Positions 1 to 49,117 of a DNA stretch of 64,000 nucleotides are shown here, piece by piece. The position numbers were made by a program, and so were the translations under genes. The notes below the pieces were generated by a model. That model was not told the origin of the DNA. It ran no database searches and saw only the letters and a program-made list of their open reading frames with translations. This stretch comes from a phage, in the sequence record OZ346219.1; one strand, written 5' to 3'. The first letter of the stretch is position 1, and every line of letters starts with the position of its first letter.

Positions 1-2817
<2,817 letters not shown>

Positions 2818-2851
2818 ATACGATAATGCATAAAAAGATGAGGAAATTCTA

Positions 2852-4855
2852 ATGACTCTATTATCACCGGGTTTCGAAACGAAAGAAACTACTCTCTCCA
2901 CTACCATTGTGCAATCTGCGACTGGTCGCGCGGCACTGGTAGGTAAATTCCAATGGGGTCCAGCTTTCCAGATTATTCAAGTAACTAATGAAGTTGAATT
3001 AGTTAATAAATTTGGTCAGCCGGATAATAACACCGCAGACTATTTCATGAGCGGGGCTAACTTCCTCCAGTATGGCAATGACCTGCGTGTTGTTCGTGTA
3101 TTGAATAAAGAAAAAGCGAAAAACGCAACTGCCCTAGCTGGTAACATCGAGTTTGAAATCACAAACGAAGGTTCAAACTATGAAGTAGGCGATACCATCA
3201 AGATTAAACATAACCGTCAAGATATTGAAACGGCTGGTAAAGTAACTAAAGTTGATGGTGATGGTAAAGTTAAGGGCGTATTTATCCCAACTGGTAAAAT
3301 TATCGCTCACGCTAAAGCAATCGGTGTATATCCAGAACTTGATGGCGGTTGGACGGCAGAGTTCACTTCTTCGTCAGGTAACGGTAGTGCGGTGCTGTCA
3401 GTAACTAAAATTGTTACTGATTCCGGTCTTCTGTTAACGGATCTGGAAACTTCCCGCGCCAATATCACAAATCAGACTTTCTTGACTAAACTCCAGAAGT
3501 ATGATATGCCAGCGGTAAGCGCGATCTATGCTGGTGAGATTGGCAACTCGCTGGAAGTTGAAATTCTGGCACGTAGCGCGTTCAGTGGCGCGGTAGCACC
3601 TGAATTAACTATGTATCCGTTCGGCGGAACTCGTGCCGCAGCACGCAACCTGATTCCATATGCACCGCAGAATGATAATCAATATGCATTTATTGTTCGT
3701 CGCGATGGTGTTGTGGTAGAATCCTATGTACTGTCTACTCTGAAAGGGGATAAAGACGTATACGGCAATTCTATCTACATGGACGACTTCTTTGCTCGTG
3801 GTTCTAGCCAGTACATCTATGCAACCGCTCAAGGGTGGGTAGATGGTTTCAGTGGTATTATCTCTCTTGCTGGTGGTGTTTCTGCTAACGAAGCAACGAC
3901 TGGTGGAGTTGGTGCTGATCCGTTCATCGGTGCGATGATGCAAGGTTGGGATCTGTTTGCTGAACGAGAATCTATTCACGTAAACCTGTTGATTGCTGGT
4001 GCATGTGCTGGCGAAGGCGATGCGTTCTCTACCGTACAGAAACATGCTGTTTCCATCGGTGATGAGCGTCAGGATTGCTTAGTAATGGTTTCTCCGCCGC
4101 GTAGCACTGTTGTTAATATTCCGGTGACTACTGCAATTGATAACCTGATTGCATGGCGCGAAGGTTCAGGAAACTATAATGAAAACAACATGAACATTAA
4201 TACCACTTACGCGGTTATTGATGGTAACTACAAATATCAGTATGACAAATACAACGACGTAAACCGTTGGGTTCCGTTGGCTGCTGATATTGCTGGTTTG
4301 TGCGCTCGTACTGATGCTGTATCCCAGCCGTGGATGAGTCCGGCAGGTTATAACCGTGGTCAGATCATGAACGTGGTTAAACTGGCAATTGAGCCTCGTA
4401 AGGCGCACCGCGATCGTCTGTATCAGGCCGCAATTAACCCGGTAATCGGTGCTGGCGGTGAAGGGTTTATCCTAATGGGTGATAAAACCGCTACGACTGT
4501 TCCTAGCCCGTTTGACCGCATTAACGTTCGTCGTCTGTTTAACATGCTGAAAAAGAATATCGGCGATTCAAGCAAATACAAACTGTTTGAAAACAACGAT
4601 AACTTTACTCGCGCTTCCTTCCGTATGGAGGTTTCGCAATATCTCAGCACGATTCGCTCTCTGGGTGGCATTTATGACTTCCGAGTACAATGCGACACCA
4701 CGAATAACACGCCGGATGTAATTGATCGTAACGAATTTGTTGCTAGTATGTTCATCAAACCAGCAAAATCGATCAACTATATCATGCTCAATTTCACTGC
4801 TGTTGCAACTGGTTCTGATTTTGACGAAATTATCGGTCCAGCTAACCAGGCATAA
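2852..4855 (+). CDS. 18: tail sheath protein gp18
   Basis: 667 aa; N-terminus MTLLSPG..FQWGPAFQI.QVTNEV and C-terminal NDVNRWVPLAADIAGLCARTD match T4 gp18; RBS gagg upstream. Confidence 0.96.
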   Translation: MTLLSPGFETKETTLSTTIVQSATGRAALVGKFQWGPAFQIIQVTNEVELVNKFGQPDNNTADYFMSGANFLQYGNDLRVVRVLNKEKAKNATALAGNIEFEITNEGSNYEVGDTIKIKHNRQDIETAGKVTKVDGDGKVKGVFIPTGKIIAHAKAIGVYPELDGGWTAEFTSSSGNGSAVLSVTKIVTDSGLLLTDLETSRANITNQTFLTKLQKYDMPAVSAIYAGEIGNSLEVEILARSAFSGAVAPELTMYPFGGTRAAARNLIPYAPQNDNQYAFIVRRDGVVVESYVLSTLKGDKDVYGNSIYMDDFFARGSSQYIYATAQGWVDGFSGIISLAGGVSANEATTGGVGADPFIGAMMQGWDLFAERESIHVNLLIAGACAGEGDAFSTVQKHAVSIGDERQDCLVMVSPPRSTVVNIPVTTAIDNLIAWREGSGNYNENNMNINTTYAVIDGNYKYQYDKYNDVNRWVPLAADIAGLCARTDAVSQPWMSPAGYNRGQIMNVVKLAIEPRKAHRDRLYQAAINPVIGAGGEGFILMGDKTATTVPSPFDRINVRRLFNMLKKNIGDSSKYKLFENNDNFTRASFRMEVSQYLSTIRSLGGIYDFRVQCDTTNNTPDVIDRNEFVASMFIKPAKSINYIMLNFTAVATGSDFDEIIGPANQA

Positions 4856-14828: not shown

Positions 14829-14992
14829 ACTTCACCTCATACATTCATAAACACAACAACGAATAATACAGTAACAGTTATTAAAGCCATTTTCAACCCC
14901 ATATTCATAATATTTTCTTCGCCTCACTATGACAGTAGCATGTCGATGCGTGCCATTATAGGCATCTAAATCGCTCTGTCAAGCACAAAAAC

Positions 14993-15017
14993 AAAAAAGC
15001 CACCCCGAAGGATGGCT
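14993..15017 (-). terminator. rho-independent terminator (leftward)
   Basis: agcca..ccccgaagg..tggct hairpin preceded by A-run on + strand, 3' of hoc. Confidence 0.6.
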
Positions 15018-15028
15018 GATAGATTTCA

Positions 15029-15769
15029 TTAAGCAGGATGCGTTTCACGAATGCGTAGAACTCGCTCTAACGTCTCTCGGTCCAGCTTATGTAACTCTTT
15101 GGAATGATACATGAAACCATTGCGAGATTCCATGCAAGTGCAATCACTATATTTTTCTTCCGCTGCCGCGATTGTCTCCAGATCTTTGGCGTACTTGCTG
15201 GTAGAATAAACTTCTCGGTCACGCCACTCTAACCCAGCCTCATTGAATTTAACAATCTCGTCAAATACCCACCATCCAATGTAGATAAATGAAGTTTTGC
15301 GCCACGGGATCGGGTGTACGTAACGAAACATTTTAACAACTTCCATTGAACATTTTCTACTTGTACTTGTTGCAACTTCTACTGGTTCATCTTCAATCTG
15401 TTGATATAGTTTAGCAACACACCAGAATTTGGCTGTGTCATCGTAAGTAGCACTCTCTTTGAACAGATGACCGTCTGGCATGATAGAAAATCCTTCCAGT
15501 GCTTCGCCGACCTCACTACCGATTAGAGTCGGTGACGGTTGCCCTTCGCGCTGCAAATACCAGTTATATTTGATCGTCAAATTAGGCATACCGCTAGAAT
15601 CACCTACAATGTCCTCTGACACAACATAATTAAGTGATATCTCATTACCTAGTGCCACGGTCTTTGATTCCACCACATCCTGATCTACGTTCATTGTTGC
15701 CAGCATGATTTTAGTCGATGCGCTAGCGGCTGAATCTTCCGACTCACCCCACACTTTTACAGTATACAC
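15029..15769 (-). CDS. hoc: Hoc outer capsid protein, C-terminal part (after -1 frameshift)
   Basis: YVHPIPWRKTSFIYIGWWVFDEI...ESRNGFMYHSKELH matches T4 Hoc capsid-binding C-terminus; track start is GTG. Confidence 0.7.
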   Translation of the reverse strand: MYTVKVWGESEDSAASASTKIMLATMNVDQDVVESKTVALGNEISLNYVVSEDIVGDSSGMPNLTIKYNWYLQREGQPSPTLIGSEVGEALEGFSIMPDGHLFKESATYDDTAKFWCVAKLYQQIEDEPVEVATSTSRKCSMEVVKMFRYVHPIPWRKTSFIYIGWWVFDEIVKFNEAGLEWRDREVYSTSKYAKDLETIAAAEEKYSDCTCMESRNGFMYHSKELHKLDRETLERVLRIRETHPA

Positions 15770-16242
15770 GCCGTTTTTATCTGCTGTAAATTCTTGGATT
15801 GTAATATCTTTTTTGTGTCTATAACGTCTTCGCCCTTACTCCAACTATAATGTAGTTCATAGTTGTCTGCTGGAGTCTTCCCACCAGAAAAATTTACTGT
15901 TGCATGTAATTCTACGTCTTTTTGTAATGATACGTAGAAATGCTGCGGTTCGGTGATATTTACGATTAATTCAGCTTCTTCCATGAGGAAAACTTCAGAT
16001 TCTACTGATTCCGTCGTATCGGTATCTTGTACCGTTACTTTATAGCTACCTGCATTTTCACTTGTTGCGTCTGCTACAGTTAGCGTAGCTGTGTTATTTT
16101 CATGCGGTTGGTCGTCTTTTGTCCATGTATATGTCAAATTGCTGGGTAATGGTTCGTCACCCGCTACAGTCGCCGTTAAGGTGAAACCATCTCCAGCAAG
16201 AAAACATCTTTTGTTAGATTGTATTGATACTGTGAAAGCCAT
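15757..16242 (-). CDS. hoc: Hoc outer capsid protein, N-terminal Ig-like part (ends at frameshift)
   Basis: MAFTVSIQ...FTLTATVAG...LTYTWTKDD resembles T4 Hoc N-terminus; ORF stops just after an A6 run. Confidence 0.7.
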   Translation of the reverse strand: MAFTVSIQSNKRCFLAGDGFTLTATVAGDEPLPSNLTYTWTKDDQPHENNTATLTVADATSENAGSYKVTVQDTDTTESVESEVFLMEEAELIVNITEPQHFYVSLQKDVELHATVNFSGGKTPADNYELHYSWSKGEDVIDTKKILQSKNLQQIKTACIL

Positions 16243-16411
16243 ATAAAGCCACTCCCATAGAAAATCCGAATTTAATTAATTGAAATAGTTGATTGTCATC
16301 AACCAGATAACCATTGTGAGATTCCAATACATGAGTATTAGAATAGTGATGCAACGAGGCCGAAATAGTATCGGTCTCGTCTGGGTATTTGTTCTGTTTG
16401 ATGTAATACAT
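16214..16411 (-). CDS. small hypothetical protein (65 aa)
   Basis: ORF only; overlaps hoc start. Confidence 0.3.
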   Translation of the reverse strand: MYYIKQNKYPDETDTISASLHHYSNTHVLESHNGYLVDDNQLFQLIKFGFSMGVALYGFHSINTI

Positions 16412-16507: not shown

Positions 16508-17236
16508 TTACTTGAGTGTGTGGAATTGGCTATGTTTAGTCTCTCGCACCTTGACAGACCCATCGCGTTTGATATAATAGATCAGTGACTTGAGGGTGTC
16601 GTGTACATACGCGTGCGGGAAACGCTCTGGATACTTCTTCCAATCTGGAGTATTAACGATCCAGTCGAAAATCCACCACGGGCAGGAGTAGTAACCACGA
16701 CCGCCACCGATCAAGCAAATGGTCGGACGGAAGCCAGTAAGATCGCAAAATGAATCAGTGTCATGTGCTGGGGAACGATGATCTGCTTCGTCAGAGAAAA
16801 GGTTGGCTACCGGAGATTCCACTTTAACTTCCGGTACATCTACAACTTCAATTGTAACTGGTACTGTGTGTGGTTTGGCTTCTTCTACAACTTCAATTGT
16901 AATTGGTTCTTCTTTTTGTTCTGGTTCTTTCATTGCTTCAACCAGAGACGGATCAACTTCGTCGAATACCACTTTATCATCTGCGGTGTCTGCTGCCAGA
17001 ATAAGATCGTTAATACTGGTTCCTTCTGCCGGAGTTTCTTCTTCCATTTCGGAAGCCAGTTTAGTTAATTCGGTCTCTACGAACTCGATCATGTTCTCTA
17101 GCGAGAGCGTCTTTTTGACCTTAATATCAAATTGTTTCGCGTAGTCCGCTAATTCTGTTTTAGCGGTTTTCTGTGCTTCTTTGTCGTCGGACGCCGCAAT
17201 AGCGCGGAGTTCTTCGAAATATTCTTTATCAAACAT
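16508..17236 (-). CDS. hypothetical acidic protein with Cys/Trp-rich C-terminal domain (position of T4 inh)
   Basis: 242 aa; internal TIEVV repeats; position between hoc and uvsW. Confidence 0.55.
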   Translation of the reverse strand: MFDKEYFEELRAIAASDDKEAQKTAKTELADYAKQFDIKVKKTLSLENMIEFVETELTKLASEMEEETPAEGTSINDLILAADTADDKVVFDEVDPSLVEAMKEPEQKEEPITIEVVEEAKPHTVPVTIEVVDVPEVKVESPVANLFSDEADHRSPAHDTDSFCDLTGFRPTICLIGGGRGYYSCPWWIFDWIVNTPDWKKYPERFPHAYVHDTLKSLIYYIKRDGSVKVRETKHSQFHTLK

Positions 17237-17270: not shown

Positions 17271-17306
17271 TTTGTATACTGTATTTATTGAGTGAGGCTA
17301 TTCGCT

Positions 17307-18809
17307 ATGCAAGATATTAAAATTCACTTTCTGAACTACTCCCATGTTCAAATTGAATGTAGCGATTCAATTTTATTAGAAATGCGAGATTATTTTAGTT
17401 TTGAAGTTGAGGGAGCGCGGTTTCAAAAAAGATTTAAGTATGGTGGATGGGATGGGCGTATTCGTCTTTTAGATTACAACGGAAAGCTGCCAATCGGCCT
17501 AACTAAAACCGTGGGAATCTTCGCTAAAAATATGGGCTATAGCGTATGGGTAGATCCTCGCTTATTCGAAAAAGAACAAGTTACAGAAGAAGAAATTACA
17601 AAATGGTGTAATGACTTAGAATTATATTCCGGTGCTAACAGGATCACCCCGCATTGGTATCAATCAAAGGCTGTCTTTGAAGGTATTCATCATAAACGCC
17701 GTATGTTAGTTTTGCCTACGTCCGCTGGTAAATCTGCGATTGCTTGTATGTTGTCTCGTTGGTACTTAGAGAACTACGAAGGGAAAGTGTTGATCATCGT
17801 TCCTACCACGTCGCTAGTGCTGCAAATGCGTGATGACTTTGTTGATTATCGCCAGTTTCCTTATGAAGCAATTCATACTATCATGAGCGGTACTAGTAAA
17901 CACGTAGGTGATCGCCTGATCGTTGTTAGTACATGGCAATCTGCATGTAAACAACCTCGTGAGTGGTTCCAGCAATTTGGGATGGTAATTGTTGATGAAT
18001 GTCACAAGGCCACTGCTAAAAACCTGCTAAACATCGTTACTGATATGGATCATTGCCAATTTAAGATCGGCATGACTGGTTCCCCTCGTGACGGGAAAGC
18101 TAACATGATGCAGTATGTCGGGCTTTTCGGTGATATTTCTAAGATCGTGAGTATTGACCGCCTGATGGAAGAAGGTCAAGTGACAAAACTGAAAATTAAC
18201 TGCCTTTTCCTTCGTTATACCGATGAGGAATGTAGCGCGGTTAAGGGGCGAGAATATGCGGAAGAGATCAAGTATATTACATCTAACCCACGAAGAAATA
18301 AGTTTGCTTGCAATTTGGCGCTAAAACTCGCTAAGAAGGGCGAAAACGTATTCCTGATGTTCCGCAATACTAAGCACGGAAAACTTATGTATGATGCGTT
18401 ACAGAAGGTACACAACAAGGTTTATTATATTGACGGTGGAGTTAAGACAGAAGAACGTGATGAATTTAAGAAAATGGTGGAGGGTGACACCGGGATCATT
18501 TGTGTTGCGTCTTATGGTGTGTTCTCTACTGGTGTTTCAATTAAGAATTTGCACCATGTTATTTTCGGTCATCCAGTGAAGGAATCAACTATCGTTCGTC
18601 AGAGTATCGGTCGTGCATTGCGTAAACATGGTTCTAAGGATATTGCAACGGTCTGGGATCTTATAGATCATCTGGCGGTGAAGACAAAGAGCAAGAATGC
18701 TAAGAAACAGTTTAGTCACCTTAATTATGCTCTTAAACATGCCCTTGAAAGAATAAAAATTTACAACACCGACCGATTCGAATATGTCACGAAAACCATC
18801 GAGATTTAA
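17307..18809 (+). CDS. uvsW: UvsW DNA helicase
   Basis: start at MQDIKIHF (RBS gagg); HWYQ, LPTSAGKS, ILIIVPTT, DECH, GMTGS.RDGKAN, VASYGVFSTG, HLNY match T4 UvsW. Confidence 0.93.
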   Translation: MQDIKIHFLNYSHVQIECSDSILLEMRDYFSFEVEGARFQKRFKYGGWDGRIRLLDYNGKLPIGLTKTVGIFAKNMGYSVWVDPRLFEKEQVTEEEITKWCNDLELYSGANRITPHWYQSKAVFEGIHHKRRMLVLPTSAGKSAIACMLSRWYLENYEGKVLIIVPTTSLVLQMRDDFVDYRQFPYEAIHTIMSGTSKHVGDRLIVVSTWQSACKQPREWFQQFGMVIVDECHKATAKNLLNIVTDMDHCQFKIGMTGSPRDGKANMMQYVGLFGDISKIVSIDRLMEEGQVTKLKINCLFLRYTDEECSAVKGREYAEEIKYITSNPRRNKFACNLALKLAKKGENVFLMFRNTKHGKLMYDALQKVHNKVYYIDGGVKTEERDEFKKMVEGDTGIICVASYGVFSTGVSIKNLHHVIFGHPVKESTIVRQSIGRALRKHGSKDIATVWDLIDHLAVKTKSKNAKKQFSHLNYALKHALERIKIYNTDRFEYVTKTIEI

Positions 18810-22759: not shown

Positions 22760-23277
22760 TGACAGAAACTAAACCTATGTTAAAATTTGTTGTTCCTGTA
22801 AAAAAAATAGAAATAAACGGGAAACATATCAAGATCCCAAAAATGGGGATTAAGCAACATCGATTATTAAAAGATGTTCGTAGCTGTGATGAAACATTAA
22901 AGATTCTTCTTGATTCAATCTGTCCTGGGTTAAACGCTGCCGAGTCTGAATTGGTTATGCTTAACCTTTGTGCGTTTAATGGTAAGTGTCTGGAAGAAAA
23001 AGATGGTCTTAAGCTGTCTGATGTGTATATTTGTACAGAGACTGAATTTACTTTAAATGGTAAAGTCTTTAAATTTAAAAATCCAATGTATACTTCTGAC
23101 CCCATTATCGATGACGCTGATTTCTTGAGTCATCATTATCACGATCCTAGCGTAGACTTCCATGATTTCCCGGCTTTTATTATGGATTGGGCTACAGGAT
23201 TAAGAAAAACTATTGCACTGGATACACCGGAAGGTACTATCTATGGTGGAATTAACATATTGGATCGCCTATCATGA
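22759..23277 (+). CDS. 28: baseplate hub distal subunit gp28
   Basis: 172 aa; synteny. Confidence 0.75.
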   Translation: MTETKPMLKFVVPVKKIEINGKHIKIPKMGIKQHRLLKDVRSCDETLKILLDSICPGLNAAESELVMLNLCAFNGKCLEEKDGLKLSDVYICTETEFTLNGKVFKFKNPMYTSDPIIDDADFLSHHYHDPSVDFHDFPAFIMDWATGLRKTIALDTPEGTIYGGINILDRLS

Positions 23278-31066: not shown

Positions 31067-31585
31067 TTAGTTATTTTTTAATTGCTCATCTTGCAATAGG
31101 GCAATCACATGCTGGCGATGTTCTTCCGATTGAGGCACACCGAAAAAGTTTGTTTTGTAGAAATACTCTAATCGGTCTTCTCGTGTGCTCTCTTCCATCA
31201 TGATCGCGGGTAGTCCGAGATTTCGGAAACGTCGCTTTTCTGCTGGCGTAAAATCACTGTAATACAACATAGAATCATCATTACCAGCAATGCTAAACTC
31301 ATCCTTCATAAAGGAGAATATTGCGTTTAAACGCTGTTTACCGTCCACGATTTCGATCTCATAGCGAGAGCCATCATCAATCTTAGCCATTGCGATAGCA
31401 CCAACCGGAAAATCATTAATAAGGTTTTCGATAAACATACGTTTGTTTTCGGTGTCCCATACTAAAGGACGCTGATAATCTGGGTTCATGCTGATATAGC
31501 CATCTTCTAACCATGCATCATAAACAGAGATGACAAAGTTTTTAGTATTGGTATAGTAACGGCGTTTAGGCGTTAAACGGTTCAT
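31067..31585 (-). CDS. DUF262 / ParB-like domain protein (stand-alone)
   Basis: start at MNRLTPKRR (RBS aggaga); motifs DYQRPLVW and IVDGKQRLNAI typical of DUF262/ParB N-terminal domain. Confidence 0.6.
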   Translation of the reverse strand: MNRLTPKRRYYTNTKNFVISVYDAWLEDGYISMNPDYQRPLVWDTENKRMFIENLINDFPVGAIAMAKIDDGSRYEIEIVDGKQRLNAIFSFMKDEFSIAGNDDSMLYYSDFTPAEKRRFRNLGLPAIMMEESTREDRLEYFYKTNFFGVPQSEEHRQHVIALLQDEQLKNN

Positions 31586-31586
31586 G

Positions 31587-31919
31587 TTATAGTCTCCTGA
31601 ATGGATCATCACGTAAATCAATATCTTTTAAGAACTCATCCCATGAATGCCGGATATTGTTCTTAATTCTCCAGATAAGCGCAGGGATTGAACGCTCTCC
31701 CATCTGGAAGTAGGGATCATATGATCCGTATGCCCAATATGCTACTACAATTCCACAATCAGCGCAATAGTATTCTATTTCACTGGCTGGCGACCAAAGT
31801 CCATCAATATGATCGGTGATCTTGCTTTCGATGTTATGGCTATGACAATCAGGGCAACGGATGCAATGACCTTGTTTATCGTAATTTGACGTTAGCGAAT
31901 ACTTAAACAATCTCATCAT
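31587..31919 (-). CDS. zinc-finger protein (CxxC...CxxC)
   Basis: 110 aa; CIRCPDCHSH ... CADCG. Confidence 0.5.
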   Translation of the reverse strand: MMRLFKYSLTSNYDKQGHCIRCPDCHSHNIESKITDHIDGLWSPASEIEYYCADCGIVVAYWAYGSYDPYFQMGERSIPALIWRIKNNIRHSWDEFLKDIDLRDDPFRRL

Positions 31920-34201: not shown

Positions 34202-34507
34202 TTAGACAAAATAATCATTCAGTGCAATCCGGTCGGCGTATGCTGGTGTTACGTCAATCGCAATCACTTTAACGCGTGCTTTCTTGCGACCTGGGTTTTC
34301 TCGTAACCAGTGCTCATGACCGTGAACATTTTTATACTTTGATGCTTCTTCAAATGTACGGATCGGACCTGGATAATCTGCGTAAAGGATCTCTAGGTCT
34401 TCGGTGATGTAAAAATATACATCATAATTACTGTTCTCTAGTTTAAGCAGAGACTTTCGGAACATTGGGAGATTTTCGCGGGTAAATTCAAAGATATTAT
34501 CTTTCAT
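34202..34507 (-). CDS. small protein, HxHW paralog family member
   Basis: 101 aa; HGHEHWL...RVKVIAIDV. Confidence 0.55.
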   Translation of the reverse strand: MKDNIFEFTRENLPMFRKSLLKLENSNYDVYFYITEDLEILYADYPGPIRTFEEASKYKNVHGHEHWLRENPGRKKARVKVIAIDVTPAYADRIALNDYFV

Positions 34508-34531
34508 AGTATTATCCTCAATAGTTTGATG

Positions 34532-34555
34532 AAAAGGGGTGGGGCTTAACGCCCC
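34532..34555 (-). terminator. rho-independent terminator (leftward)
   Basis: A-run + ggggcttaacgcccc (same hairpin as at 30513). Confidence 0.5.
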
Positions 34556-34560
34556 GTATA

Positions 34561-34848
34561 TTAAAACAGTCCTTCCTGTACACCGTAGTAGAGTTCATCG
34601 CTGATAATTTCATTAATGCGACGGTGTGCATATTCCTGATTTGCGAAGTTATCAGCAAGTTCTACTTTAGTTTCTCCGTCATGAGTCCATTTAGTGATAA
34701 CTTTACCATCTGCAAATTTGAAGTTGAACTCTTTAGCTACTGCATCGCGTACCAGACGTGCGAACTTGTTATTACGGATTGCATTATCGGTTTCGTGTGC
34801 AGCGTGAGCGAATTTGTTAACTTTCAGAGTGATAGTAATGTATGCCAT
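34561..34848 (-). CDS. hypothetical protein (95 aa), AKEFN family
   Basis: RLVRDAVAKEFNFK; paralogous to 37855-38166. Confidence 0.55.
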   Translation of the reverse strand: MAYITITLKVNKFAHAAHETDNAIRNNKFARLVRDAVAKEFNFKFADGKVITKWTHDGETKVELADNFANQEYAHRRINEIISDELYYGVQEGLF

Positions 34849-48918: not shown

Positions 48919-49085
48919 TATTCGACAACCTCAAAGCATTTATCATCAGGAAGAATAGCCCATTCTATGCCGTATTCATCCTCAACGTAGTAGCAAGTCC
49001 CGTCATGTCGAGCATCATATACATCACCAACAACAAAGCTATCAGCTAGCTCAAAATCTACAGCAACACATTTTAATTTGGTCAT
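48918..49085 (-). CDS. small hypothetical protein (55 aa)
   Basis: promoter cassette and RBS upstream. Confidence 0.4.
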   Translation of the reverse strand: MTKLKCVAVDFELADSFVVGDVYDARHDGTCYYVEDEYGIEWAILPDDKCFEVVE

Positions 49086-49117
49086 AATAAAATCCTCACT
49101 TGTTTTTTGATGGTTGT

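Follow-up and report, generated by a model that had tools for sequence, protein, structure and literature searches.

Hoc is a decoration protein that binds the capsid via its C-terminal domain and is non-essential under laboratory conditions, as had also been assumed in the sequence-only reading of the DNA analyzed here; if Hoc is lost, the capsids are expected to be free of it, virion aggregation to increase, and surface adhesion to change (PMC10385173). The slippery heptamer A_AAA_AAG, placed without stimulators in a lacZ reporter, gave more than 0.1% shifting, the values for the motif alone being at most approximately 10 times the background of 0.055% and going down to a few tenths of a percent (PMC4066793). 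The same motif has been cited as supporting more than 1% shifting and was the main site in the approximately 10% suppression of a one-base deletion in lambda cI (PMC10861913). One-base deletions were rescued at 25–60% at C_AAA_AAA in pDEST17 (PMC1851650).

There is precedent for hoc-null phages, for homopolymer frameshifts of T4-type phages, and for incidental suppression at A_AAA_AAG. The locus described below is either a private frameshift of an ordinary kind or a miscall in a homopolymer and represents neither a new mechanism nor a conserved recoding device. Its only particular is a coincidence: the lesion itself makes the best E. coli slippery heptamer, and a slip at this position would restore the native sequence.

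The split hoc gene of a Krischvirus

The window, i.e., the whole 64,000-nt stretch of phage DNA that was analyzed, belongs to a Krischvirus (RB49-like, T4-type, Straboviridae). The best match to its 1351-nt hoc region was Escherichia phage kaaroe with 99.9% identity, and 57 phage records were at least 90% identical to most of this region. Over the whole 64 kb, the window and kaaroe were approximately 98.5–99% identical and their differences were mosaic, so the window phage is a distinct isolate.

Both the ORF list and the sequence itself confirmed the split that had been proposed, i.e., a 161-aa ORF with an ATG start (15757..16242, minus strand), a 246-aa ORF with a GTG start (15029..15769, minus strand), and a run of six A on the coding strand (15809..15814, minus strand; T6 on the plus strand). 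Compared with the upstream ORF, the downstream one is shifted to the −1 frame, in agreement with the earlier claim, since 16242 − 15769 = 473 = 2 mod 3. This frame opens at 15835, a short way upstream of the run of A, and reads through without a stop (...DTKK/DITIQEFTADKNGVYTVKVWGE). The upstream ORF does end after the run, but the distance of about 13 codons given earlier had to be corrected: the stop lies 16 codons past the last native codon. The 161-aa product consists of Hoc residues 1–145 (Ig domain 1 and approximately half of Ig domain 2), identical in 100% to those of kaaroe Hoc, and of 16 out-of-frame residues (ILQSKNLQQIKTACIL) followed by TAA.

Searching with kaaroe Hoc in tblastn gave two HSPs, both with 100% identity, one covering residues 1–145 in one frame (16242..15808) and the other covering residues 144–404 in the −1 frame (15814..15032). 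Two such HSPs mean that the ORF pair did not arise by chance. According to the same search, the downstream part of hoc (15029..15808, minus strand) encodes residues 146–404 and the stop, i.e., the remainder of Ig domain 2, then Ig domain 3, and the domain at the C-terminus that binds the capsid. Once rejoined, the halves make up the 404-aa Hoc of kaaroe with 100% identity.

On the evidence of the encoded protein and its neighbors, the split gene is identified as hoc. The rejoined protein matched PDB 3SHS (RB49 Hoc residues 1–304) with an E-value of 1e-191, and its residues 296–384 matched residues 281–367 of the capsid-bound T4 Hoc chain 5VF3_Z (E = 5.9e-14); this C-terminal capsid-binding domain is encoded by the downstream −1-frame part only. 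Pfam PKD, Ig_3, I-set, and V-set domains were found in the N-terminal part, with PKD, Ig_3, and I-set at residues 6–85 of the upstream fragment, and together with the 3SHS match they form the string of N-terminal Ig-like domains typical of Hoc. An inh-like ORF (16508–17236) and a UvsW-like ORF (17292–18809) adjoin hoc in the order annotated in kaaroe, RB49, and Phi1, so the gene occupies its conserved position beside inh and uvsW. The one hallmark of hoc that was lacking is a single uninterrupted ORF of approximately 400 aa, as the frame is broken in the window after codon 145.

The coding strand around the run reads GAC ACA AAA AAG ATA. When codons are counted from the ATG at 16242, the heptamer A_AAA_AAG (15808..15814, minus strand) is read directly in the 0 frame and comprises the last base of the ACA codon 143, the AAA codon 144, and the AAG codon 145. 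Both frames are open between 15760 and 15835 (minus strand; ORF list and start/SD scan), the limits being the upstream TAA of the −1 frame (15838..15836) and the TAA of the 0 frame (15759..15757). Any −1 shift inside this overlap would be predicted to give full-length or near-native Hoc.

A Shine-Dalgarno sequence, GGGAG (16252..16256, minus strand), was read directly 9 nt upstream of the hoc ATG. No convincing Shine-Dalgarno sequence was detected for the downstream ORF either at its GTG or at any in-frame ATG, GTG, or TTG of the next 100 codons. The scan of start codons and Shine-Dalgarno sequences agreed with the earlier remark that this GTG has no obvious initiation signal, and we rejected the idea that the C-terminal ORF is translated from a start of its own. 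The terminator scan placed an intrinsic terminator after hoc (14990..15017, minus strand; AGCCATCC-TTCG-GGGTGGCT followed by a T run), and a terminator is annotated at the matching place in phages G37-3 and GEC-3S. Directly downstream of it, a perfect sigma-70 consensus (TTGACA, 16 nt, TATAAT; 12/12) was noticed at 14955–14982 on the minus strand, which presumably serves the small ORFs beyond as an early promoter.

Several other features of the window, remote from hoc, were noted during the comparison with kaaroe. The window starts exactly at the ATG of a 938-aa TerL ORF (1–2817, plus strand), which exceeds a T4-type large terminase by approximately 330 aa and carries LAGLIDADG_3 (aa 364–422) ahead of Terminase_6N (aa 496–698) and Terminase_6C. 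The extra segment looks like an intein or a homing-endonuclease insert. No megablast match in kaaroe was found for positions 493–1794, where kaaroe has two overlapping annotated CDS. At ~31585–31588, a 178-nt segment of kaaroe with the small gene kaaroe_252 is missing, a presence/absence difference between near-identical phages. Two opposite homopolymer changes relative to kaaroe, A5 to A4 at 49057 and T5 to T6 at 49108, are separated by 51 nt; the stretch that holds them, between nrdA and the small genes that follow, is unannotated in kaaroe, and the pair could represent a frameshift and its compensation within a small ORF that escaped annotation.

Alleles at the site and broken hoc copies among relatives

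The 1351-nt hoc region differs from that of kaaroe in two positions only, by the lack of one A from the kaaroe A7 run and by a substitution at 15602. The latter is synonymous, as follows from the 100% identity of both HSPs with kaaroe Hoc. A7 is present at the site in kaaroe, OZ035808, and ELT4, with flanks identical to those in the window, so the length suggested earlier as restoring the frame does occur in relatives, and the loss of one A (A7 to A6) is the most parsimonious event. An origin by deletion of G from the AAAAAAGG allele was considered and set aside as less parsimonious; the flanks are those of kaaroe (GAAGACGTT...TTACAATCC), not those of the ECD7/kvi type (GATGACGTT...TTACGATCC). 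The aligned relatives show an uninterrupted 404-aa Hoc to be the ancestral state, of which the window is one base short.

The occurrence of the split was surveyed by tblastn with kaaroe Hoc among 59 phage records, i.e., 53 distinct phages once the six GenBank/RefSeq duplicates are subtracted. In 58 of these records Hoc was recovered as a single uninterrupted alignment, and the two-frame split of the window was found in none of the 59. The exact 161-aa product had no record in a collection of 153 billion genes. Two further searches did not serve as a census. Megablast with 33–34-nt exact words for A6 and A7 gave no match even for the positive control, A7 of kaaroe, and was uninformative; the homologue search with the 161-aa ORF returned two short proteins and missed known full-length Hocs.

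Direct alignment of the loci of 18 relatives revealed several alleles at the site. Three phages (kaaroe, OZ035808, and ELT4) have A7 followed by G (ACA AAA AAA GAT), five entries (an IMG/VR contig, G37-3, GEC-3S, GoldenSnicker, and kvi) have AAAAAAGG (ACA AAA AAG GAT), and seven phages (Phi1, PHB13, G5211, MIZ6, AV108, JSE, and phiS) have AAAACAG (ACA AAA CAG followed by GAT or AAT). RB49 carries AACACAG (ACA ACA CAG GAT), Brandy carries GACACAG (ACG ACA CAG GAT), and G2248 has a divergent allele. Every allele in this survey keeps the frame at the site. When IMG/VR was scanned by pattern for whatever allele the site might have, one contig, with in-frame AAAAAAGG, was returned; the corresponding metagenome scan returned none. 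With the split absent from the searched relatives and the exact product absent from the gene collection, the A6 allele is, as far as these comparisons reach, private to the window genome and the split is recent and not programmed.

Two other damaged copies of hoc were encountered. The gene of G37-3 (MK327941.1, 301–1511), annotated as two hypothetical proteins, has three frame-breaking deletions (1, 2, and 1 nt), all at other sites, and is either a decayed gene or a low-quality stretch. The contig MAVA01000043.1 (GCA_002832725.1), to which the homologue search led, carries at 2347–3500 a hoc with two single-base deletions, again at other sites, and encodes a truncated Hoc of 161 aa. It is a 3.5-kb contig with a Krischvirus uvsW-inh-hoc arrangement and its ends are mutually reverse complementary, a hairpin-like assembly artefact; it is probably of low quality. 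The recurrence of broken hoc at unrelated sites is compatible with the gene being dispensable, with poor sequence quality, or with both.

The five relatives with AAAAAAGG carry A_AAA_AAG in frame at the site homologous to 15808–15815, and their hoc genes are uninterrupted except for that of G37-3, which is broken elsewhere. From the motif, mRNAs of such hoc alleles should leak a little truncated −1 product ending approximately 12 codons further on.

Origin of the missing base

We favor, at a probability of roughly 55%, a real, isolate-specific A7 to A6 frameshift that would have arisen by replication slippage in a decoration gene dispensable in the laboratory. Of the kaaroe ORFs with 70 aa or more, 109 had a match in the window, and hoc alone was truly split among them. 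A second apparent split (window 34208–34631) was dismissed, as the break falls in intergenic DNA upstream of the annotated start of kaaroe_245. The missing A was the sole coding-interior indel listed relative to kaaroe; the remaining single-base indels were all intergenic or at gene ends. Five further coding runs of 7–8 identical bases, including A8 at 22800–22807, leave their ORFs open and in frame. The presence of a single broken gene and of five long coding runs kept in frame favors a real mutation over an error. As Hoc is non-essential in the laboratory, a real frameshift could become fixed by plaque purification. The hoc sequence has just one further difference from kaaroe and accordingly bears no mark of relaxed selection that would prove the gene dead for any length of time.

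A sequencing or assembly artefact, in which the hoc of the phage is intact with A7 and one base was lost only in the consensus, is a weaker candidate that we still regard as a substantial one. The aligned part of kaaroe contains four runs of seven identical bases and one of eight, so A7 is among the longest homopolymers in the 64 kb and a consensus miscall would be expected exactly there. A single-base undercall in such a run would agree with the protein being otherwise identical to Hoc of an intact relative and with the allele being seen in no searched relative. In other records of draft quality, hoc contains single-base deletions here and there (the three of G37-3 and the two of MAVA01000043.1), which makes it plausible that the broken copies in the databases are errors. 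Against a miscall speak the lack of any further frame-breaking indel in approximately 109 ORFs over the 64 kb and the correct frame of the other five coding runs of 7–8 bases. That the remaining differences in homopolymer length occur only in intergenic DNA and at the ends of genes is the pattern of natural variation filtered by selection, not of random miscalls.

If a mixed or switching population is counted in, a real mutation becomes the likely explanation. Long A runs are classical frameshift hotspots of T4-type replication, as known from Streisinger slippage at the A runs of rII. The A7 tract could on this account be a contingency locus making hoc phase-variable, with the stock being mixed for A7 and A6, or derived from such a stock, and the assembly having caught the OFF state. 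The occurrence of A7 and A6 on one haplotype in two near-identical phages agrees with this, and an OFF state leaky via A_AAA_AAG would give graded display. A contingency locus is expected to keep its tract in relatives and to show recurrent ON and OFF lengths. Here the tract is not conserved, as A7 is present in three of the 18 surveyed loci and the others carry the alleles listed above, and one OFF allele only was met in 59 records, the other broken copies being broken elsewhere. We therefore consider phase variation unlikely. The fuller version, a reversible switch of the kaaroe-type A7 in which A6 switches off stoichiometric display and A_AAA_AAG lets a few percent of ribosomes restore wild-type Hoc, is slightly more doubtful, being little supported for the same two reasons. 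If true, it would mean heritable high-display and sparse-display states of the capsid, which could affect mucus adherence, aggregation, and immune visibility.

The earlier suggestion of slippage-dependent expression was not supported, as an evolved device, by the comparative data. Programmed recoding would mean that full-length Hoc is made via an efficient −1 shift at A_AAA_AAG, or via transcriptional slippage, and that the 161-aa product is a second functional protein. The perfect in-frame heptamer of the X_XXY_YYZ type, the −1 product being exactly wild-type Hoc, and the −1 frame being open from just upstream of the site speak for such a device. Conservation does not: the two-frame arrangement was absent from all 59 related records, and the nearest relative, at 99.9% DNA identity, is uninterrupted. 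No stem-loop or pseudoknot was found 5–9 nt downstream of the heptamer. Folding of the 89 nt downstream revealed no stimulatory RNA structure (MFE of −18 kcal/mol, z = −0.76, with 40 of 200 shuffles folding equally well), and the first downstream helix, which is weak and A/U-rich, starts 18 nt from the heptamer. The only Shine-Dalgarno-like element, AAGGG (15837..15833), ends 18 nt upstream instead of the required ~10–14 nt, and the 161-aa fragment ends inside an Ig domain. Efficient slippage of RNA polymerase takes a run of roughly 8–9 or more A/T; the run here has six A. Programmed recoding is on these grounds highly improbable, and we infer that any slippage at the site is incidental leakiness, not an evolved recoding signal.

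Predicted expression and comparison with known systems

If the frameshift is real, most ribosomes would stop 16 codons past the site and release the 161-aa fragment, which comprises the first Ig domain and half of the second. This main product would end inside Ig domain 2 and lack the C-terminal domain that binds the gp23 hexamer, so the capsids would be mostly bare of Hoc. The deletion would at the same time bring A_AAA_AAG, the slippery heptamer of E. coli dnaX, into exact register with the 0 frame. If the two tRNA-Lys slipped by −1 in tandem, the next codon would be GAT (Asp146) and the product would read DTKKDITIQ..., exactly wild-type Hoc, with the junction peptide ...GEDVIDTKKDITIQEFTADK. 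Because of this exact restoration, the A6 allele is probably leaky and is likely to yield some full-length Hoc, probably at a low level. By analogy with the reporters cited above, the slipping fraction could range from ~0.1% to ~10% depending on the context, and such a minority of ribosomes would provide sparse, sub-stoichiometric Hoc decoration.

For annotation, both ORFs should be labelled as one disrupted hoc (pseudogene/frameshift) and not as two proteins. The isolate may carry little or no Hoc, which is relevant to its use in phage therapy, in mucus-adherence studies, and in capsid display. Should A6 prove real, the phage would be a hoc mutant of natural origin, probably leaky, with an RB49-like background, in which −1 slippage at a bare A_AAA_AAG could be tested in a phage late mRNA.

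The closest known system is Hoc of Krischvirus/RB49 itself (3SHS; kaaroe QHR66045.1). The gene and its locus beside inh and uvsW are the same, the protein has the same three Ig-like domains and C-terminal capsid-binding domain, and the rejoined window Hoc is 100% identical to kaaroe Hoc and approximately 97% identical to RB49 Hoc. The difference is that the frame in the window is broken after codon 145 by one missing A, whereas the genes of the searched relatives are uninterrupted except for that of G37-3.

E. coli dnaX shares with hoc the same heptamer in the correct frame, read by E. coli ribosomes with a single tRNA-Lys (PMC4344849). In dnaX the motif is accompanied by a Shine-Dalgarno-like element ~10 nt upstream and by a downstream stem-loop, and hoc has neither stimulator; the dnaX arrangement is conserved, whereas that of hoc is unique to one genome. 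Laboratory Hoc(−) T4 strains used in display work resemble the window phage in the loss of a decoration protein that is not needed to form plaques (PMC10385173), but they carry engineered deletions or nonsense alleles, whereas the window has a spontaneous (or apparent) one-base deletion in a Krischvirus, which is probably leaky. For this leakiness, the nearest parallels are lambda cI FS8 and C_AAA_AAA of pDEST17, in which a one-base deletion close to a run of lysine codons is likewise rescued by −1 slippage and full-length active protein is made at a few to tens of percent (PMC10861913; PMC1851650). Those values come from over-expression constructs, whereas hoc is expressed from a phage late mRNA.
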